DNA of 64,000 nucleotides from Kiritimatiellia bacterium. Its GTDB lineage: Bacteria; Verrucomicrobiota; Kiritimatiellia; RFP12; UBA1067. Numbering within the stretch: the stretch's first letter is position 1; every line of letters begins with the position of its first letter. The notes below the pieces were generated by a model. The model was given only the letters and a program-made list of their open reading frames with translations, was not told where the DNA came from and made no database searches. Made by a program: the position numbers and the translations under genes. The stretch spans positions 31,684-95,683 of the forward strand of contig JAFQYM010000030.1 in NCBI GenBank assembly GCA_017406465.1, read 5' to 3'. Positions 39,344-49,203 of the stretch are shown here, piece by piece.

Positions 39344-40744
39344 ATGAAGAAGAATCGCGCCAGCTGGTCCGGATCGGTTGCATTCGTGCTCGCGGCGGCG
39401 GCGTCTGCCATAGGGCTTGGCAACCTTTGGCGCTTTCCCTATCTCGCGGCTCGCTATGGCGGCGGCGTGTTCATCGCGGTCTACCTTGCGCTTTCGCTCA
39501 CGCTCGGCTTTGTCCTGCTCGTCACCGAGATCGCGATCGGGCGCTACGCTCGGCAGAGCCAGCTTACGGCGTTTGGCGTCCTCGGACATCCGAAGTGGAA
39601 TTTCCTCGGCGTCCTCGCGACTCTCGTGCCGCTCTTCATCCTGCCGTATTACAACGTCATCGGCGGGTGGGTAGTCCGCTACTTCGCGGCGTATGCGGGA
39701 ACGGCCTTCGCGGGAATTGCGCCGGCCGCAGACCCAAAGGCGTTCTTCGACGTGTTCGTCGCCGCGCCGTGGATGCCGTTCGTGACGATGTGCGTCTTTA
39801 CGGCGGCAGCCCTTGTCGTGATCGTCTTTGGCGTCAAGAACGGCATCGAAAAGGCGAACCTCGTCCTCGTGCCGGCACTTCTTGCGATGGCCATCGCGCT
39901 TTCCGTGTATGTTGCGACGCGCCCGGGCGCAGGCGCGGGAATCAGGTACTATCTCGTTCCCGACTTCTCGTCATGCGACAACGTCGGCAAGGTCGTGCTC
40001 GGCGCGATGGGGCAGATGTTCTACTCGCTTTCGCTTGCGATGGGGATCATGATCACCTACGGCAGCTACATGCGGCGGCGCGACTCCGTGCCAAAGGCGG
40101 CGGTGAGGATCGTCGCTGCGGATACCTTTGTCGCAATCCTTTCCGGCTTCATGATAATCCCAGTCGTTGTCGCGTTCGCCTCGGCTGGTGCGGCTGAAGG
40201 AGGCCGCGTAGTGATCGACGCAGGCCCCGGGCTCATGTTCGAGACGCTTCCGAAGGTCTTTCTCTCGCTTGGCGCGGCAGGGCCGTGGATTGGGCTCGTC
40301 TTCTTCACGCTTGTCCTCTTCGCGGCGCTTACGAGCGCCATCTCGATGACGGAGGCGCTCGTCGCCGCGGTCTGCGACTTCTTCAAGACGAGCCGAGGCA
40401 AATCCGTCGCGGTGATCGGCGCGTGGTCCATCGCGGTTGGCGCGCTCTCTGCGTTCGGGTACGGACGGTGGAGCTCGCTCAAGTTCTTCTCTCTTCCGCC
40501 GCTCGACTTCTTCGACACGTCGATGAACATCTTGACGCCCATAGTCGCCGCGCTTATTTGCGTGTTCGTCGGCTGGATCTTAAGCCCCAAGCGCATTCTC
40601 GCCGAGTGCCAGCGCAGCGGCGAGCGCGTCGGCTTCCGGCTTTTCTACGTCGTCATGGTGCGCTTTGTCGCGCCGATCCTGATTGTGGCGATCCTCGTCT
40701 CCGAGGTCTGCCGGTGTCTCAAGATCGGCGGCTGGAGCATCTGA
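39344..40744 (+). CDS. Sodium-dependent transporter (NSS/SNF family)
   Basis: AAASAIGLGNLWRFPY, GIEKAN, AMGQMFYSLSL..G.MITYGSY, GPGLMF, AALTSAISM.E. Confidence 0.93.
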   Translation: MKKNRASWSGSVAFVLAAAASAIGLGNLWRFPYLAARYGGGVFIAVYLALSLTLGFVLLVTEIAIGRYARQSQLTAFGVLGHPKWNFLGVLATLVPLFILPYYNVIGGWVVRYFAAYAGTAFAGIAPAADPKAFFDVFVAAPWMPFVTMCVFTAAALVVIVFGVKNGIEKANLVLVPALLAMAIALSVYVATRPGAGAGIRYYLVPDFSSCDNVGKVVLGAMGQMFYSLSLAMGIMITYGSYMRRRDSVPKAAVRIVAADTFVAILSGFMIIPVVVAFASAGAAEGGRVVIDAGPGLMFETLPKVFLSLGAAGPWIGLVFFTLVLFAALTSAISMTEALVAAVCDFFKTSRGKSVAVIGAWSIAVGALSAFGYGRWSSLKFFSLPPLDFFDTSMNILTPIVAALICVFVGWILSPKRILAECQRSGERVGFRLFYVVMVRFVAPILIVAILVSEVCRCLKIGGWSI

Positions 40745-42820
40745 CTACACGACAATCGCGCCGTTTTTCGCCGTGACCTTGATCTCGGCTCCCGGGAGAT
40801 ACTTCCCCGCGATGATGTTCTTCGCAATCGGGTTCTCGAGCTCGCGCTGGATCGCGCGCTTCACAGGGCGCGCGCCGAACGCTGGGTCGTAGCCGTCCTT
40901 CGCGAGCTGTGCAAGCGCCTTGTCATCGACAACGAGCTTGAAGTCCTGCTCCGCGAGACGCTTTGCGAAGTCCTTCAGCTGGAGCTTCACGATTTCGGCT
41001 ATTTGCGTTTCGTTCAGCGAGTCGAACTCGAGGATCTCGTCGAGGCGGTTCAGGAACTCCGGGCGGAAGATGTCCTTGAGCGCGTCCTTCGGCGCGTTCG
41101 AAGTCATGATTATCACCGTGTTCTTGAACGACACCGTGCGGCCGTGGCTGTCGGTGAGCCGTCCGTCGTCGAGCACCTGAAGAAGCACGTTGAAGACGTC
41201 GGGGTGCGCCTTCTCGATCTCGTCGAGAAGGACGACCGAGAACTGCTTTCTGCGCACGGCTTCGGTGAGCTGACCGCCTTCGTCGAAACCGACGTATCCG
41301 GGCGGCGCGCCGACGAGGCGAGAGACGGCGAACTTCTCCATGTACTCCGACATGTCGAGCCGGACCATCGCGTTCTCGTCGTCGAAGAGTTCCTGGGCGA
41401 GCGCCTTTGCGAGTTCCGTCTTGCCGACGCCAGTGGGCCCGAGAAAGAGGAACGCGCCGACTGGCCGGTTGCGGTTCTTGATGCCGGCGCGAGACCTGAG
41501 TACAGCGTCTGCAACAGCGTCGACCGCCTTGTCCTGGCCGATCACGCGTTCGTGCAAGATCGCGCCGAGACGCATAAGCTTCTCGCGCTCGCCCTCCACG
41601 AGTTTCGTTACCGGAATGCCGCTCCAACGCGAGACGACCTCGGCGATTTCGTCGGCCGTCACCTCCTCACGAAGAAGCGTCGCGCCTGACTTGGACTTTA
41701 GTGCGTCCTCGTGTTCCTTGAGGCGCTTTTCGAGCGCGGGGATGTCGCCGTACTTCAGTCGCGCGGCCTCGTTGTAGTTGCCCTCCGTCTCGGCACGCTC
41801 GGCTCGCGACTTGAGTTCCTGCAACTGGGTGCGCACCTTGCGGACTTCCTCAAGGTCGGCCTTTTCGCGCTTCCACTGCGCCGTCATTGCGTTGGATTTC
41901 TCCTTGAGCCCCTTGAGCTCAGACTGCAGTTCCTCTAGCCGCTTCTTGGAGTTCTCGTCCTTTTCCTTCTTTAGCGCGATTTCCTCGATCTCGAGACGGC
42001 GAACGTGGCGTGAAATCTCGTCGAGCTCTTGAGGGCACGAGTCCATCTCGGTTCGGATTCTTGCGCACGCCTCGTCGAGAAGGTCAATCGCCTTGTCGGG
42101 GAGGAATCGGTCTTGGATATAGCGTGAAGAGAGAACGACCGCGCTTACGAGCGCTTCGTCTCGTATGTGGACGTTGTGGTACTTCTCGAAGCGCTCCTTG
42201 ATTCCGCGCAGGATAGAGATTGCGTCTTCCTCGCTGGGCGCGGCGACCTGCACCGGCTGGAAGCGGCGCTCGAGCGCCTTGTCGGACTCCATGTACTTGC
42301 GGTACTCGTCGAGCGTGGTCGCGCCGACGCAGTGAAGTTCGCCGCGGGCGAGAAGGGGCTTCAGCATATTGCCTGCGTCGGACGATCCTTCGGTCTTGCC
42401 TGCGCCGACGATGGTGTGGATTTCGTCGATGAAGAGGATGATCTTTCCTTCAGATTCCTTTATCTTCTTTAATACGGCCTTTAATCGTTCCTCGAATTGG
42501 CCGCGGTACATTGCGCCTGCCATGAGGGCCGTCATGTCGAGGGCGAAGACCGTGCGGTCCTTGAGTCCTTCCGGCACGTCGCCTCGGACGATGCGCTGCG
42601 CGAGTCCCTCGACGATGGCTGTCTTGCCAACGCCCGGTTCGCCGATGAGCACGGGGTTGTTCTTCGTCTTGCGCGAGAGTATGCGGATGACGTCGCGAAT
42701 CTCGGTATCGCGACCGATGACTGGATCGAGCTTGCCAGTCCGTGCGAGCGCGGTCAAGTCGGAGCCGTACTTCTCAAGGCACTTCTCGTTGTCTTCTGCT
42801 GGTTCAAAATTTGCGTTCAT
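40745..42820 (-). CDS. clpB: ClpB disaggregase lacking the N-terminal domain
   Basis: KLDPVIGRD, Walker A GEPGVGKT and [18 protein letters not shown], coiled-coil M domain, [16 protein letters not shown] and a -10 lie directly upstream. Confidence 0.9.
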
Positions 42821-42850: not shown

Positions 42851-42899
42851 GAGCAATCGGAGTGCCATATAGGAAAACTGGGTTTATGTGGTAAAAATG

Positions 42900-42933
42900 G
42901 CGACATATTGTCTCTTGTGTGTCAATATGTCGC
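42900..42933. promoter_or_regulatory. Perfect 11-bp inverted repeat, candidate operator
   Basis: GCGACATATTG-N12-CAATATGTCGC. Confidence 0.45.
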
Positions 42934-42949
42934 AATTTTAAGGTTTTTC

Positions 42950-43049
42950 AAAAAAGTTTGTCATCGGCTGTCACTGGGTGCATACATTCACTTGGTTAAA
43001 CTTGTTGCTCGAACCGAAGCGTCATCTTCAACGCTTCGGTTTCGTGTTT
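42950..43049 (+). repeat. 100-bp direct repeat, copy 1
   Basis: Aligns without gaps to 47771-47870 with 4 mismatches (42974, 42975, 42979, 43031). Confidence 0.95.
42957..42984 (+). promoter_or_regulatory. Candidate ECF/alternative-sigma promoter, copy 1
   Basis: A-tract, TTTGTCATCG, N11, GTGCATA. Confidence 0.5.
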
Positions 43050-43050
43050 T
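42990..43050 (+). ncRNA. Candidate ~60-nt sRNA, copy 1
   Basis: Follows the promoter-like motif. Unstructured 5' part, then hairpin AACCGAAGCG-N10-CGCTTCGGTT and a T-rich tail. Confidence 0.4.
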
Positions 43051-43055
43051 TATGA

Positions 43056-43082
43056 AAAAGAGGTATTTGTAAAACCTCTTTT
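43056..43082 (-). terminator. Intrinsic (bidirectional-type) terminator of the C10 peptidase gene
   Basis: AAAAGAGGT-N9-ACCTCTTTT, 12 nt downstream of the minus-strand stop. Confidence 0.75.
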
Positions 43083-43094
43083 ATGCTGCGAGGG

Positions 43095-46000
43095 CTAAAG
43101 GTCTACAGGGAAAGCTTCGCATTCGGTGACGGAATTCTGTTCGTCCACCTTTATCCCAACAGAAAACATCCTATGCAAACCGTCAGATCCAACCTTTGGC
43201 GGAGCGAATGTCATTACCTGATATCCCTTGCCAGTCTTTACGAGTTGCGAAGTTCCGCTGACTTTCGTTGCGCCGTTGGCGAAGGAAACGACGCCATCTT
43301 TCTTAAAGGTCAGGACAAGACCGTCTTCCTGTTCCACTTTGAAATCCCTCTTGAATACCGGCATCGATGTCTTGGTATCCGCACGCTTCCAGAGATTCTG
43401 CCACGCAGACCACTCGTCGCACGACACTTCGCCTATCGCCGGAAGGTCGGTGTCGACAATGCTCGATGCGACCGTGATCACATTGGTTATCATGGCTTTG
43501 CCGTTTTTGCCGATGACGGTCGCGAGGAAAATGCCGTCCTCGGTGCTGTCATAGGAGCTCGCCGTGAGCGCCCATGTAAGGTTGTCGACAAGCATCTTGC
43601 CGCTTATCTTGCCTGCCGGCGACACCGTCAGCGCCTGGATGGCGCCGACTGCGTTGGCATCCGCGTCCCATGCCGTGCCGTAAAAGTTTCCAACCGCCCA
43701 TGCGGGAAGGGAATTGACTTGGAAGTCAAACGAGAATGTCTCTGATGACTTGCCTGCCGTCGTCACCGTGAATACTACCTTTGACGGCGTTACGGCGCCG
43801 GTCTTGGCATCGACCTTGGATGCCGTCGTCGGAACGCCCGTAACCGAATATTCCCCAGTCGTCTTGTTCTGGACGAGTTTTAGCCCGGCTGGAAGCCCCG
43901 CGACCTTCACCGTTGTCTTTGAAAGCCCGTCCGGCACAATCGGCCAGTCAAGGGCGACGCCGCAATAGCGGTTGACGGGCGCGTTTGCCGTGCCGCTCGC
44001 CGCGCCGTTCAGATTTGAGCTGTCCACTTCGAGGCCAATCGCGTCTTTGTCTTCCTGCGCAGTAACGAACTGTGCCGTGATGAATATGTCGTTCATGCCG
44101 TCCATTCTCAGCTTGATTGTCGCGGCGAAGGGATCCGGTATTTTGGCGTCTCCGCCGGTGATGACCCAGCGGCTGAAGACAAAGCCCTTGTCCGCCTTTG
44201 CCGTCAGCGAAACGTCCTTGCCTGCCGCGACCTGCCCGTACTTTGGGGTCATAGAAATCTTGCCTGTGGCGCCAGAGTCCTGCGTCAGCGATTCGATGGT
44301 GGCGACAATGCCGGGATCGCGGTAGACGTTGTCGCCGTAGTTCTCTCCATGGTGTGCGACGAGATTGACGTCCTTGAACACGGCAGGATATCCTTTTTTC
44401 GCGTCAGGGGGAATCGCAACTACTACGTGCAGTCCTGTTGGCTCTGCGAGCGCATTTGCCGAGAACGACGCTTTGCGCGACTTCGCGCCGTCGGGGATGT
44501 CGGCCGAACCTTTTACGGCGCCTTTCTCGTCAAGAGCAAAGGCAATCTCGCAGGAGGCATTGCCGTAGCCTGCGGAGAAGGAATAGGCGCCCGCGTATGT
44601 GGCGACAAGACCTGCGGCAAATGCATCGGATTTGTCCGACCAGATGATGCGGTAGAGCGTCGTGTCGTCGCTGCCGAACGAACCGGCGGCCGCGCCAGTT
44701 GCGGAGTCGACGGACAGGTATTCCGCCTTGAAGTCCGTGAGCGCCAGCGCCAGATCGCGAGTTATTTTGCCGGCGGTCGCCGACAGCCCGATCAGCAGGT
44801 TCGTTGTCCCCGTCGTTTCGCTTTCAATGGTGAAGGAATCGGCTTTGAACGTCCAGTTCGTGCCGTCCAGTGCGATTTTGCCCGATATCTTGCCTGCCGC
44901 CGTGATGCTCATCGTTGCCACGCCGCGCGAGGCGACGGATCCCTCGAAGTTTCCGACGGCCCATGAGGGAAGGGGGTCGACCGTTATCCTGACAACATAG
45001 GTCTTAGTCGACTTGCCTGCCGTCGTCACCGTGATCTTGACCTCCGACGGAGTGATGTGTCCCGTCTTTGCGTCGACCTTAGACGCAGCGGACGGAGCGC
45101 CGTAGATCGTATTTGCTGGGACAAGCACTTCCTTGGTCTTTGAATCGACAACGTCCTTTGCCGCAAACTTGAGCCCCGAGGGAAGCCCCGCCACTTTCAC
45201 CGTTGTCGCCGAGAGCGCCGTCGCGGCGACTGGCCACTGGAGCGAGATGCCGCACATTACATTTGTCAAGAGCGTGTCGGAGGGGTTTTCGAAGGAATGG
45301 CCGTCCATTTCAAGCGCAATCGCCTTTGCGTCATCGGCGAGCGTCGCAAAACGCGCTTCGAGCGCCAGGTCTTCTGCCGGCATCTCGAGTGAAAGCGCCG
45401 CATTTCGGGATTCATCCACCAGTTCCCCGTCCAGATAATAGCCGCAGAACGCGAAACCGGCGTTAGCCGTTGCCTTCAGCGCGACTTTCTTGCCGTATGG
45501 ATAGGAACCGGCGCCCGTGACCTTGCCCATTTGCGGAGCAGAAGCTCCGTCGCAGTCGACGACGTCGGCTGACAATTTCGGGAACAGCACGTTGAATCCG
45601 GCGGTAACGACCTTCTTTTTGCCGTCCTTTCTCGCGGTGAATGTTACGGTCGTGCGCCCCTCTTTCGCGGCAATGCCGCTCAGTCGCCTATTTGGGGCGT
45701 CGTATGCAATTCCCTGCGGCAACCCCGAAACGGTCAACGTCCAGCCATTCTCCGCGACGGTCGCAATAATGTCCGACAGGTCGGGCGCGAGCCCCGCCCA
45801 GAGTGTGTAGGGGCTGCCGAGTCCGAATCCAATAAAGGCATCGCGTTCAAACGTGGCTTCTGATATGATTGAGCAGTTAAGATCCTCCTTGAAGGCACGG
45901 GCCTTCACCGTTACGCTCGAAGAGATCTCGAACGGTCCGCAATACTCTTCGCTTTCTTCCGTCGGATCCGTTCCGTCCGTCGTATACTTTATGACGGCAC

Positions 46001-47696
46001 CGTCCGTGGCGCACGAAATCGTCACAAGTGTGTTTGGATAGAAGATTCCCCCGTTGGGCGAAATCATCGGCGGCGCGGCAGACTTGACGTTTATGACCAT
46101 GTCGCATCCCCAGGAGTTTCCACAGGCCACGCTTTTCCCCGCGTCATTGATCCAGCACATGCCAACGTCAAGAGTCACACTCGAGCTAGCGCTCCTTGTT
46201 GTCGTTGCCTTGGCCGACACACTGTAACCAGTCGCTTTCACGGTGTACGACTTGTCCGCGTCGACTACAAACGCATATATTCCCGATTCGCTTGTCGCCG
46301 TGCTGGCGATCGGCTCGTCGGAATCGGCAGAGAAGATCGCGACATCCACGTTGGGAAGGGGAGTGCCCTCTTCATCGGTAACGCGCCCGGACACTATTTC
46401 CCCGTTTGTCTCGGGGAATATATTGTATATGACCGATTCCACCATCGTAGACTCGTATTGGCCGTCGGCCGTCGTGATGTACGGCAAGGCATACCATACG
46501 TTGTCTTCACCTGACCACCCGAGGTTGACATGCGTATAGAGGGTCCCGTCTGAATAGCCGTAGCCGTCGGCGAAGGCGATGTGCCCGACAAATCCAAGGA
46601 TCACTGGCAGTCCTGCGTCAAGATTCGAGCAGACGATGCGATTGCGGAAACTCTCGTCCTTTAGATCCTTCTCGCATGCGCATACTATGGCGTTTTTGTA
46701 TCCAAAGTCTTCTATCAGCACCGATGCCGAGCCTGCTCCGCCTGAAGAACTGGCCTCCTCGTCCCACCACATCCTCATTGCGACACCGCAGTCGTATGTC
46801 AGTTTCCCGATGGCGGCCAGCTGGGTCTCGGTCGCCCCTCCTGCGTACCAAGGCACATATTCGTATGCCTCGGGAATAAGTGGCATGCTGTCATAGTCGT
46901 ATTCTCCGCCAAACATCGTCATGAACGCGTTTTTAGTCCGAACCTTGCAGCCCTTGGTCTTTGCCTTGACGGACTTTGGGTACTCGTGATAACGCATGAT
47001 TTGCGCAAGAGTCGTCGCAACGCATCCGCACGGATAGTTGCTTGGGGTGTAGTAGTTGTAGCAATTGGTGCCCATGTTGATGTATATGGAGTTGTTCTCT
47101 TGCCCCCACATTGACTTTACAAACGGCTCGACACGGACGTCGGAAACAGATTCGGCCGGGTCGGTGGCCGATTTCAGCATGTTCCTTGATCCCTTGGCCG
47201 AAGATGACGTTCTTGCGCCTTCCGAAAGGAGCCGATCCCACTGCCTTTGGGTGGCCGTGCGCTGCTGTTCCTCGGCCGTCGAAGTCAGGAGCCGGACCTT
47301 GCGAGCGGGAGTCGCGGGTTCGTTTGCGCGGGTGCGCATTGCGATATCGGCCTTGAGGATGTCCAAGAGCGGGCTGTTGCAGTCGCCCTTGCGCAGATTG
47401 CCTGTCGGCGAGAATGCAATGACCGGCTGGACAAGATCGTCTGCGCCCATGACGACGAAACCGCCGCCGTCAAGCGAGACGACGTGCATTTTCGCGTTGT
47501 CCGCCTCTAAGGTCTCGCCGTCCGCGGCGGATCTGCCGCGGAGACCATCCATGGAGTAGCCGAGGTTTATCCACGCCTGCGCTGCCGTCTTCGCGGACTC
47601 AAGCGAGACTTCTGCGGCATTTGAGATGGCCGGCGGGAAAAACAGTGCTGCGACTGCAATGGCCGAGGATGTCCAAGAAATGGATATCTTCTTCAT
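43095..47696 (-). CDS. Large secreted C10 (streptopain-like) peptidase with Spi/I69 prodomain, CHB_HEX_C-like, putative Ig and B-repeat domains
   Basis: GGFVVMGADD..QPVIAFS (I69-like), PCGCVATTLAQIMRY, GHIAFADGY, HVNLGWSG, YTTDGTDPT, repeated SGLP.G, G.VTGAGSY.YGKKV.LKATANAGF.F. Confidence 0.85.
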   Translation of the reverse strand: MKKISISWTSSAIAVAALFFPPAISNAAEVSLESAKTAAQAWINLGYSMDGLRGRSAADGETLEADNAKMHVVSLDGGGFVVMGADDLVQPVIAFSPTGNLRKGDCNSPLLDILKADIAMRTRANEPATPARKVRLLTSTAEEQQRTATQRQWDRLLSEGARTSSSAKGSRNMLKSATDPAESVSDVRVEPFVKSMWGQENNSIYINMGTNCYNYYTPSNYPCGCVATTLAQIMRYHEYPKSVKAKTKGCKVRTKNAFMTMFGGEYDYDSMPLIPEAYEYVPWYAGGATETQLAAIGKLTYDCGVAMRMWWDEEASSSGGAGSASVLIEDFGYKNAIVCACEKDLKDESFRNRIVCSNLDAGLPVILGFVGHIAFADGYGYSDGTLYTHVNLGWSGEDNVWYALPYITTADGQYESTMVESVIYNIFPETNGEIVSGRVTDEEGTPLPNVDVAIFSADSDEPIASTATSESGIYAFVVDADKSYTVKATGYSVSAKATTTRSASSSVTLDVGMCWINDAGKSVACGNSWGCDMVINVKSAAPPMISPNGGIFYPNTLVTISCATDGAVIKYTTDGTDPTEESEEYCGPFEISSSVTVKARAFKEDLNCSIISEATFERDAFIGFGLGSPYTLWAGLAPDLSDIIATVAENGWTLTVSGLPQGIAYDAPNRRLSGIAAKEGRTTVTFTARKDGKKKVVTAGFNVLFPKLSADVVDCDGASAPQMGKVTGAGSYPYGKKVALKATANAGFAFCGYYLDGELVDESRNAALSLEMPAEDLALEARFATLADDAKAIALEMDGHSFENPSDTLLTNVMCGISLQWPVAATALSATTVKVAGLPSGLKFAAKDVVDSKTKEVLVPANTIYGAPSAASKVDAKTGHITPSEVKITVTTAGKSTKTYVVRITVDPLPSWAVGNFEGSVASRGVATMSITAAGKISGKIALDGTNWTFKADSFTIESETTGTTNLLIGLSATAGKITRDLALALTDFKAEYLSVDSATGAAAGSFGSDDTTLYRIIWSDKSDAFAAGLVATYAGAYSFSAGYGNASCEIAFALDEKGAVKGSADIPDGAKSRKASFSANALAEPTGLHVVVAIPPDAKKGYPAVFKDVNLVAHHGENYGDNVYRDPGIVATIESLTQDSGATGKISMTPKYGQVAAGKDVSLTAKADKGFVFSRWVITGGDAKIPDPFAATIKLRMDGMNDIFITAQFVTAQEDKDAIGLEVDSSNLNGAASGTANAPVNRYCGVALDWPIVPDGLSKTTVKVAGLPAGLKLVQNKTTGEYSVTGVPTTASKVDAKTGAVTPSKVVFTVTTAGKSSETFSFDFQVNSLPAWAVGNFYGTAWDADANAVGAIQALTVSPAGKISGKMLVDNLTWALTASSYDSTEDGIFLATVIGKNGKAMITNVITVASSIVDTDLPAIGEVSCDEWSAWQNLWKRADTKTSMPVFKRDFKVEQEDGLVLTFKKDGVVSFANGATKVSGTSQLVKTGKGYQVMTFAPPKVGSDGLHRMFSVGIKVDEQNSVTECEAFPVDL

Positions 47697-47702
47697 GCGC
47701 GC

Positions 47703-47711
47703 ATTATATCA
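47703..47711 (-). promoter_or_regulatory. Extended -10 for the C10 gene (leaderless)
   Basis: TGATATAAT on the minus strand, 6 nt before the ATG. Confidence 0.65.
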
Positions 47712-47770
47712 AATTTTCCGCGTTTTGCCACTAGGGATCCTTGTGTAAAATAAGGATACGTAAAAAATCA

Positions 47771-47870
47771 AAAAAAGTTTGTCATCGGCTGTCATCGGGC
47801 GCATACATTCACTTGGTTAAACTTGTTGCTCGAACCGAAGCGTCATCTTCAGCGCTTCGGTTTCGTGTTT
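47771..47870 (+). repeat. 100-bp direct repeat, copy 2
   Basis: Offset 4821 bp from copy 1; 96 of 100 positions identical. Confidence 0.95.
47778..47805 (+). promoter_or_regulatory. Candidate ECF/alternative-sigma promoter, copy 2
   Basis: A-tract, TTTGTCATCG, N11, GCGCATA. Confidence 0.5.
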
Positions 47871-47871
47871 C
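47811..47871 (+). ncRNA. Candidate ~60-nt sRNA, copy 2
   Basis: Identical to copy 1 except one change at the loop edge (47852). Confidence 0.4.
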
Positions 47872-47930
47872 TAGGGTATGTCGCCTTTTGCGATTTTAGC
47901 CACAAAGAGCAGGAGAAACAGAAGGAGAGT

Positions 47931-48048
47931 CAGTAGTTGGAGTCCAGAGTTGGAGTTGGGGAGTGGAGTTGGCGGCGGAGCGAAGGCCTGGGCGAGGGGA
48001 TGCGGCGTGTTCGCCGAGGGCCCCTGAGGAGGAGCCTTCGGACGTCGC
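47931..48048 (+). repeat. GAGTTG-type tandem repeats followed by a nested REP-like palindrome
   Basis: agttgg/gagttg units at 47935-47972; CGAAGGC (47981) pairs with GCCTTCG (48034); GGCGA (47991) pairs with TCGCC (48011). Confidence 0.5.
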
Positions 48049-48071
48049 TAGACAAAAAAATTAAAAAATTT

Positions 48072-48099
48072 TTTGTCATCGCCAGCGTCGGCGTGCATA
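48072..48099 (+). promoter_or_regulatory. Candidate ECF/alternative-sigma promoter, copy 3 (outside the direct repeat)
   Basis: A-tract, TTTGTCATCG, N11 (a different spacer sequence), GTGCATA. Confidence 0.5.
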
Positions 48100-48186
48100 T
48101 TGCTTATTAGCAGACCCAATAAAATCAAGGGTTTTGCGCGTTTTTGCGGGGTAATTTTACCCACGAAATTTTTTTTGTATACCCCC

Positions 48187-48216
48187 TTGCGCACAGCACA
48201 CAAGATATGCTATAAT
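48187..48216 (+). promoter_or_regulatory. Sigma70 promoter of the surface-protein operon
   Basis: TTGCGC, 18-nt spacer, TATAAT preceded by TGC. Confidence 0.7.
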
Positions 48217-48222
48217 GTCCGC

Positions 48223-48441
48223 GTTCTCGAACAACAAGGAGGATTCGGACGATGTGTCCGGGCCTTGGTTAACAGACCGGGGCACAACGAAAGTTGACTC
48301 TGAAGTTGCGAGAGGACAACAAGTTAACCACCTGAAGTGGACTTGAGTGAAGGCGGTCGGGTGATCGCAAGAGCTCTGGAAAGCGGAAGGTACCGGAGAA
48401 GGGTCCAACAAGCCCGACTCCAAAAAAAGGAAAAAAACAAA
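48223..48441 (+). ncRNA. Structured ~220-nt 5' leader (candidate cis-regulatory RNA)
   Basis: Hairpins with GNRA loops (CAAC-GAAA-GTTG, C-GAGA-G, TC-GCAA-GA, CT-GGAA-AG); long-range GTCGGG/CCCGAC; three CAACAAG motifs. Confidence 0.5.
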
Positions 48442-49203
48442 ATGAAGAAGCTCATGATTGCTTGCGCTGTTGCGGCTACGACCGTCGGCGCTTTCGCGGG
48501 TGGCTGCGGTGACGACGATCCCGTCGTTGTTCAGGATCCTGTCAACCAGGTCTATCGTCTCTCCTTCACGGGCAAGACGACTGACGGCGTTCCGGGCAAG
48601 GATATTGTCACGCCCGTCTTCTGCGGCGATGACGACGTTCAGGACGGCTGCGTTGTTCGCGTCCCGGCGAACCTCAAGATCGAGGGCTGGGTTGTTCTCT
48701 GCGACATCACCTGCGGCACGATCCTCGACGTGTTCAACGCTCCGAAGAGCCAGGCCTACTGGACCACGAAGCCCTACAAGGCTGACATTCCGGATGGCGC
48801 TGCTACGTTCGATCTCATCAACGTGATCGGCAAGAAGGGCAAGGATGCTGAGGCTGCTGGTAAGTTCACTGGTACCGTTACGTACGCTGCGGACTATACG
48901 TGGTCGCTTGGCGACGGCCTTGTTTTCGCGGGCCTTGGAAAGACCGCGGTCAAGAACGGCAGCTGGGCGTACTTCCCGTCCTTCTCGGGCAACTTCGCTG
49001 GCTCGCCTGTCGCGTCCTGGTACATCAAGGGCAACGTCTGCGAGCAGACGCATGTCTGGGAGCCCTGCACGATGGCCGTCAACTGCGACGAGACCCCGAA
49101 CACGGTTGCGTTCGGCAAGTGGGCGATGAAGTATGATGCCGCGGCCACGAAGAAGGTTGCGACGACGAATCCTAGCAAGCCGTCTTACGCGACGATCCAC
49201 TAA
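48442..49203 (+). CDS. Secreted Cys-rich hypothetical protein, probably highly expressed
   Basis: Signal peptide MKKLMIACAVAATTVGAFA; 8 Cys in the mature part; many GCT/GTT/GGT codons, unlike neighbours; SD AAGGA. Confidence 0.85.
   Translation: MKKLMIACAVAATTVGAFAGGCGDDDPVVVQDPVNQVYRLSFTGKTTDGVPGKDIVTPVFCGDDDVQDGCVVRVPANLKIEGWVVLCDITCGTILDVFNAPKSQAYWTTKPYKADIPDGAATFDLINVIGKKGKDAEAAGKFTGTVTYAADYTWSLGDGLVFAGLGKTAVKNGSWAYFPSFSGNFAGSPVASWYIKGNVCEQTHVWEPCTMAVNCDETPNTVAFGKWAMKYDAAATKKVATTNPSKPSYATIH

Follow-up and report, generated by a model that had tools for sequence, protein, structure and literature searches.

The locus described here lies in a 64,000-nucleotide (nt) stretch of DNA, hereafter the window, from a Kiritimatiellia bacterium (contig JAFQYM010000030.1, positions 31,684 to 95,683). 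Two direct repeats of 103 nt enclose a gene for a predicted secreted cysteine peptidase of family C10. A preliminary description had reported two near-identical direct repeats around a single gene with its own promoter and terminator, with no integrase or transposase present. The repeat search of the window bore this out: the copies start 4821 bp apart and are 95% identical, and their five differences fall in the promoter spacer, the hairpin loop (A/G) and the tail. The enclosed gene is accompanied by a promoter-like site and a terminator-like hairpin, and the gene and Pfam tables contained no recombinase, integrase or transposase among genes called up to about 10 kb away. The features of the repeats and of the DNA between them are the following:

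42950–43052, plus strand: repeat copy 1, candidate small RNA (sRNA) gene A, 103 nt
42958–42963, plus strand: −35-like TTGTCA of copy 1, promoter-like, with an A-tract upstream
42981–42986, plus strand: −10-like CATACA of copy 1, promoter-like
about 42993–43052, plus strand: predicted RNA of copy 1, about 60 nt, with 5′ end UGGUUAAACUUGUUGCUC, a hairpin at 43011–43042 and a U-rich tail
43053–47770, minus strand: strain-variable 4.7-kb segment, holding the C10 gene and the terminator-like hairpin and promoter-like site that belong to it
about 43057–43081, minus strand: terminator-like hairpin after the C10 stop codon, visible in the sequence
43095–47696, minus strand: C10 peptidase gene, 1533 amino acids (aa), the only long open reading frame between the repeats
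47731–47703, minus strand: promoter-like site of the C10 gene, GTGGCA-17-TATAAT
47771–47873, plus strand: repeat copy 2, candidate sRNA gene B, 103 nt, laid out as copy 1
47779–47784, plus strand: −35 of copy 2
47802–47807, plus strand: −10 of copy 2
47832–47863, plus strand: hairpin of copy 2

The source genome is a metagenome-assembled genome (MAG) of 3.5 Mb, 83% complete. A whole-genome search for further copies, which the preliminary description had envisaged, returned these two only (E 1.8e-48 and 1.5e-41). The possibility it had raised that the pair is a misassembly was ruled out by contigs from different samples that span both copies: at least nine independent assemblies cross the two copies together with their unique flanks. 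They include five long contigs from different samples (L113–L117), which are 99.4–100% identical to the window over 13.9–15.8 kb, three further similar loci, and a contig from the Joint Genome Institute (JGI), L178.

On the plus strand each unit reads as an A-tract, TTGTCA-N17-CATACA, some 20 unpaired nt (UGGUUAAACUUGUUGCUC), a 12-bp hairpin and a U-rich tail. The plus-strand terminator-like hairpin of copy 1 has 12 pairs, and the fold of copy 1 gave z = −4.7. The unit was searched for by BLAST and then with a covariance model (R1), which matches the window at 42989–43054 (87.9 bits) and 47810–47875 (88.1 bits). An alignment of 41 copies, drawn from two genera, shows a conserved RNA body and nearly invariant −35 and −10 hexamers, with variation in the promoter spacer and the hairpin loop. 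The unpaired 5′ end, UGGUUAAACUUGUUGC, is almost invariant, and GGTTA..CTTGTTGC, which is single-stranded in the folds, is invariant or nearly so in both genera. In the hairpin, 96.6% of the alignment cells are paired and 7 of the 15 pairs show compensatory changes, as in GAAGCG/CGCTTC to GAGACG/CGTCTC. None of 500 shuffles equaled the observed covariation, and slid controls paired at 51% at most. No Rfam family was found in the window at gathering thresholds, and searches of the repeats and the adjoining leader at permissive E-values gave only chance-level matches. A gene for Hfq was found in 0 of 31 genomes of the genus, 19 of which are at least 90% complete.

This architecture is the signature of two sister (paralogous) copies of a lineage-specific sRNA gene, with a sigma-70-like promoter and a predicted RNA of about 60 nt. 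From the sequence, we infer that each unit gives rise to a discrete transcript, which would act by base pairing without Hfq, possibly on the adjoining leader that contains CAACAAG. Tandem "sibling" sRNA genes are known elsewhere: OmrA/OmrB in E. coli, PrrF1/PrrF2 in Pseudomonas aeruginosa, and AbcR1/2, and in one E. coli strain omrA and omrB are split by an insertion element (PMC4211561). The present pair resembles them in that near-identical short RNA genes stand head to tail in one intergenic region, each with its own (here predicted) promoter and terminator, and in that species differ in having the genes in tandem, singly or dispersed. It differs in sequence and phylum, to which the known siblings are unrelated, in having no Rfam family, in the lack of an Hfq gene in the genus genomes noted above, and in that a protease gene, with no transposase, makes up the inserted DNA.

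Short conserved non-coding repeats could also be read as a mobile or selfish element, similar to miniature inverted-repeat transposable elements (MITE) or repetitive extragenic palindromes (REP), or as a protein-binding DNA site, either of which would flank the gene by chance. The region is indeed rich in dispersed repeats, and an element of about 72 nt with at least 35 genomic copies lies in the spacer adjacent to copy 2. The unit itself, in contrast, has two copies in the source genome and one to three in others, lacks terminal inverted repeats and target duplications, and keeps a syntenic position across species. Its conservation is strand-specific, and the covariation supports an RNA hairpin. 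We regard this explanation as very improbable.

The enclosed 1533-aa protein gave Pfam matches to Inhibitor_I69, Peptidase_C10, CarboxypepD_reg, CHB_HEX_C_1/Fn3_assoc and Flg_new_2. The Peptidase_C10 match (PF01640) reached 113 bits against a cut-off of 26 (E 2.5e-32). In a comparison with the streptopain structure 6ukd (E 2e-15), the Cys (GCVAT), His (GHIAF) and NLGWSG (NxGW) motifs align. The protein is therefore a C10 (streptopain-family) cysteine peptidase by its sequence, and is predicted to be secreted, with a signal peptide, an I69 propeptide, the catalytic domain and then internally duplicated Ig-like/InlB-B-repeat modules. It shares with streptopain SpeB and interpain A the propeptide and catalytic domain recognized by Pfam, and the Cys and His motifs that align with streptopain structures; it differs from them in its much greater length and in the duplicated modules. 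Within the gene, a 101-nt direct repeat (43738–43838 and 45001–45101, 73% identity) results from duplication of a C-terminal module that spans about 420 aa, has AGKISGK...W motifs and is itself weakly similar to the tail of a neighboring 1558-aa protein (E 9e-4).

The peptidase belongs to a large, fast-diverging Kiritimatiellae family, and the source genome has at least four C10 paralogues. No orthologue was found in 117 genomes of the genus, where the best match aligns along part of the protein at 57% identity. A search of 5.8 billion proteins gave, beyond the protein's own cluster, nothing better than 60% identity over 40% of the length. The GC content of the gene is 55–59% against about 60% in the flanks, so that base composition gives no sign of a foreign origin. 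The non-coding ends of the 4.7-kb segment are unique in the genome.

On either side, the repeats and the peptidase gene are bordered by clpB and by the promoter region and first gene of an operon:

40745–42820, minus strand: clpB (left flank), 691 aa, without the N-terminal domain; its upstream region abuts copy 1
47874–48064, no strand assigned: spacer after copy 2, holding a dispersed repeat at 47971–48044
48065–48101, plus strand: P3, a third promoter-like unit with the A-tract/TTTGTCATCG...GTGCATA signature and a different downstream sequence
48187–48441, plus strand: operon promoter-like site (TTGCGC-N18-TATAAT at 48187–48216) and conserved leader, about 220 nt long
48442–49203, plus strand: first operon gene (right flank), a 253-aa secreted protein with no Pfam domain

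Within its own genus the unit was present in 17 of 117 species genomes; one sister genus had it in six genomes, and BLAST and the covariance model detected it in none of the 46 further genera that make up the order. When 185,579 species genomes were scanned for its pattern, the matches were MAGs labeled Kiritimatiellae, Verrucomicrobia, Lentisphaerae or "uncultured bacterium", many of them with rumen RUG isolate names; outside those MAGs the scan gave only eight chance matches in unrelated taxa. Genomes carry one to three copies, often as a tandem pair 136–323 bp apart with no gene between. Measured from start to start, the empty pairs are spaced by 270 bp in G016, 323 bp in G088, 233 bp in G126, 245 bp in L179, 243 bp in L184 and 218 bp in L185, and in the sister genus by 197 bp in G248, 136 bp in G240 and 232 bp in G264; in the conspecific contig L118 the copies are 229 bp apart. 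In G088 and G126 the pair stands between clpB and an operon leader of the window type. In this family of Kiritimatiellae from rumen and gut, the gene is usually single or a tandem pair, in the same direction as, and just upstream of, the leader of a surface-protein operon.

Related MAGs had been expected in the preliminary description to show a single copy or different cargo genes. The first was seen in G131, the closest species representative (flanking proteins about 85–95% identical), where the order is clpB, a single copy, P3, leader and operon, without a C10 gene. The second was not generally seen, since ten tandem pairs were empty and only that of G097 was filled (L107, contig 13, 8463–12393): here genes for an ECF sigma factor and a Ser/Thr-kinase-like protein, along with two opposite-strand genes, lie between two diverged copies in direct orientation, 3861 bp apart.

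Elsewhere, dispersed copies lie 60–600 nt upstream of genes for giant secreted proteins (an S8 subtilase with leucine-rich repeats, a transglutaminase-like protein and a Flg_new giant), and one lies upstream of an ECF sigma factor gene. These positions are compatible either with co-regulation of surface proteins or with a role as promoter and leader. In the latter case, the unit would be a portable promoter plus 5′ leader module whose hairpin is read through, tandem copies would be stacked operon promoters, and the C10 gene would have landed between them. The same-direction placement upstream of the operon leader in many genomes, the copies upstream of giant secreted proteins, the poor U-tracts of many copies and the shared promoter signature of P3 all agree with it. 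However, copy 1 of the window points at the 3′ end of a convergent gene and so has nothing to drive, and the same holds for copies in G021 (contig 69) and G012 (contig 46). The unpaired 5′ 16 nt are also more conserved than a leader would need, and in the window copies the hairpin and U-rich tail fit a terminator. We find this account rather unlikely.

To compare strains, we examined contigs encoding a ClpB identical in amino acid sequence to that of the window. Eight such contigs show the window arrangement, and one, L118, has no C10 gene at this exact site. Together with L178, three haplotypes can be distinguished: H1, that of the window; H2, that of L118, with no C10 gene and a different operon; and H3, that of L178. 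The left flank of L118 is 97.9% identical in DNA sequence to the window. Its order is clpB, copy A, a 125-nt spacer, copy B, spacer, P3, leader, a 296-aa protein and a 2083-aa protein, of which the 296-aa protein is unrelated to the first operon protein of the window. The bases that mark copy 1 (CACTGGGTG, loop A) are found in copy A, and those that mark copy 2 (CATCGGGCG, loop G) in copy B. Both sister genes therefore predate the insertion. In the window, the C10 segment (43053–47770) stands where the empty allele has its spacer of about 125 nt, which runs from the terminator of A to the A-tract of B. To the right, copy B, the spacer and P3 are 97–99% identical between L118 and the window, the leader is 87% identical, and the coding sequence beyond cannot be aligned. 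More generally, the 253-aa gene is replaced in the other haplotypes by unrelated or highly diverged versions.

L178, a rumen-type contig from JGI, has the same C10 arrangement in a different background. On the clpB side it has 37 differences from the window in 800 bp (95.4% identity), the last of them at 42879, whereas the block of copy 1, C10 gene and copy 2 has 33 differences in 4920 bp (99.3% identity). In this single comparison, the contrast between left flank and block gave a Fisher p = 1e-14, and the step on the left falls within 42879–43158. Copy 2 is identical, divergence returns abruptly at 47871, and the downstream operon is about 70–80% identical. In the left flank, H2, which lacks the C10 gene, is closer to the window than H3, which has it; the presence of the gene thus does not follow the background.

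The preliminary description had proposed strain-level variation and had also considered an arrangement invariant across strains. The three haplotypes, with no C10 gene at the site in L118, a single copy and no C10 gene in G131 and the divergence step around the block in L178, speak for variation. Because the changes in divergence fall at the repeats and the gene is variably present, our results point to integrase-free exchange of the C10 gene, with recombination at the repeats or close beside them. On the simplest reading, the short conserved non-coding units would be the crossover points and the block would have moved by a double crossover.

A different route had been suggested at first, namely Campbell-type arrival: a circle bearing the C10 gene together with one copy of the element would enter a single resident copy by a single crossover, and the cassette could be excised again. 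The direct orientation of the repeats, the lack of an integrase, the single copy at the same site in the sister species G131 and an inserted length equal to cargo plus one repeat are what this route predicts. Yet the conspecific empty allele already has two copies, 229 bp apart and with the copy-specific bases, and empty tandem pairs are the common state in two genera. Hybrid copies were not seen, and the assemblies contained neither a circle nor a single-copy junction. The 4813-bp Logan contig L122 ends within the repeats, as expected from a break in the de Bruijn graph, and its ends do not overlap. Because the repeats are older sister copies, which stand in tandem in relatives and in the empty allele, a single Campbell crossover is insufficient, and a double crossover or two steps would be needed. 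We consider arrival by this route unlikely. The related suggestion of a shared landing pad also failed to hold, as the ten other tandem pairs are empty and the contigs of the nearest C10 homologues (60% identity at most) carry no copy of the sRNA gene.

Two further origins of the repeats were discarded. A target-site duplication was ruled out, since both marked copies are already present in the empty L118 allele and in relatives; insertion products or dedicated att sites were rejected, since the older sister copies stand in tandem in relatives. Loci of sRNA genes are known as hot spots at which acquired DNA inserts, but by way of phage integrases: in Salmonella, such an integrase uses a 23-bp att site inside ryeB of the ryeA/ryeB locus (PhiW104; Balbontin et al., 2008, as reported in PMC7380047). 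The likeness is that an sRNA locus bounds strain-variable DNA, which in Salmonella was horizontally acquired. The locus analyzed here differs from that account in having no integrase, no short core of the att type and no phage, and homologous recombination over sRNA genes of about 100 bp is indicated instead.

Taken as a whole, we think it probable that the repeats are sibling sRNA genes, that the C10 segment came to lie between them, and that the block has been exchanged among strains. In one lineage of the species, a self-contained 4.7-kb segment encoding the secreted C10 peptidase would have replaced the short spacer between the sister genes. Later, the sRNA–C10–sRNA block would have passed among diverged strains by RecA-type homologous recombination, and crossovers in or at the sRNA genes would have produced the presence/absence variation of the protease.

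Several points weigh against this explanation. The recombination argument draws on a single empty allele and a single diverged background, that of L178, whose left flank covers only 800 bp; no donor was found, and no trace of the original insertion event. The genomes and contigs searched contained no donor locus, alternative cargo or circle, and the exact left-junction pattern had 0 matches in JGI metagenomes. As to the RNA, the −10 hexamer (CATACA/CATATA) is a weak match, a good U-tract is missing in several copies, of which some may read through, and expression and the RNA ends are predictions. The same caution extends to the putative target. The seed is complementary to ACAACAAGTTAACCA in the operon leader (48314–48328) and to a second CAACAAG (48406–48412); at the first site it matches over 13–15 bp with −19.9 kcal/mol, and a genome-wide duplex search found about 50 other sites that equal or better this duplex. 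Covariation of seed and target was not seen. The leader module that holds the complementary site (module 2) occurs in 12 genomes, and the sRNA gene is present in 12 of the 12. Targeting of the adjoining leader is thus a lead and not a finding.

P3 resembles the repeat in its first 35 nt only, the promoter part (48065–48099), and is followed by a different conserved sequence, AGCAGACCCAATAAAATCAAGGG... (region 48065–48190). It is conserved in G088, G131 and L118, and may represent a second short RNA or an upstream promoter of the operon. A fourth similar promoter motif lies about 620 nt past the end of the window (contig 58 of the source genome, position 96306). A loose ECF-type version of the motif was counted four times in the genome, where shuffled sequence would give about 3.7, and it resembles the local housekeeping TTGTCA/TATACT pattern.

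The leader (48224–48441) belongs to a wider family in the genus (loci L049–L062), with CCCCCTTGNNN-N17-TATAAT followed by GGATTCGGAC..GTGTCCGGGCCTAGG..CCGGGC..AATGAAAGTTGAC. In genomes without the sRNA gene, a different RNA-like stretch of about 300 nt, itself strongly conserved, follows this leader; Rfam had no match for the leader or for this stretch of the relatives. In G012 and G013, copies of the leader lie at contig ends (L046, L048, L064, L066, L068), which implies that the leader and the MKKLM signal-peptide start are multi-copy there and break the assemblies. Behind the 253-aa gene, the operon of the window continues with a SurA-like peptidyl-prolyl isomerase and the 1558-aa protein. 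The dispersed repeat in the spacer before P3 (47971–48044) is a GC-rich, hairpin-prone element whose genomic copies are 83–92% identical, and it also occurs in the spacer between the two sRNA genes of G088.

On the left, ClpB begins at the linker before nucleotide-binding domain 1, and its 691-aa length is kept in G088, G126 and G131. The short clpB is not a truncated call, because the sequence upstream is intergenic. Between an AI-2E transporter gene and clpB lies a gene for an SNF-family transporter (39344–40744, plus strand), which is present in G131 and absent in G088 and G126, where its neighbors abut.

It is known that variable loci without an integrase, such as those of the capsule and O-antigen type and chromosomal hotspots, are exchanged by homologous recombination in conserved flanks. 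The locus in the window is similar in its conserved flanks, unrelated cargo, sharp divergence steps and mosaic of haplotypes within a species. It differs in that the flanks are non-coding genes of about 100 bp and a leader, not housekeeping protein genes, and in that this precise site has so far shown only a single kind of cargo. A broader possibility, which we consider doubtful, is that the sRNA genes, P3 and the leader serve as "homology handles" for recombinase-free swaps of genes for surface and secreted proteins, with the sRNA regulating the adjacent cargo. Such swaps would take place between strains and between loci, and the cargo would include C10, S8 and transglutaminase-like peptidases and giant adhesin-like proteins.

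Kiritimatiellota is a phylum dominated by uncultured members and abundant in the rumen and gut. To our knowledge, no regulatory RNA has been described in it, although the literature was not searched for this. The unit is a well-supported candidate for an sRNA family that is absent from Rfam, apparently independent of Hfq and tied by position to surface-protein operons. The locus is also a tangible example of a strain-variable secreted protease whose recombination boundaries are marked by sister sRNA genes, and it bears on strain-level differences in protein degradation in the rumen and in interaction with the host or with glycoproteins. For genome scanning it carries a caution, as direct repeats that bracket a gene may be pre-existing paralogous RNA genes and not footprints of a mobile element. 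If the "homology handles" were real, these bacteria would possess a cassette system that needs no integrase and is based on genes for regulatory RNAs.

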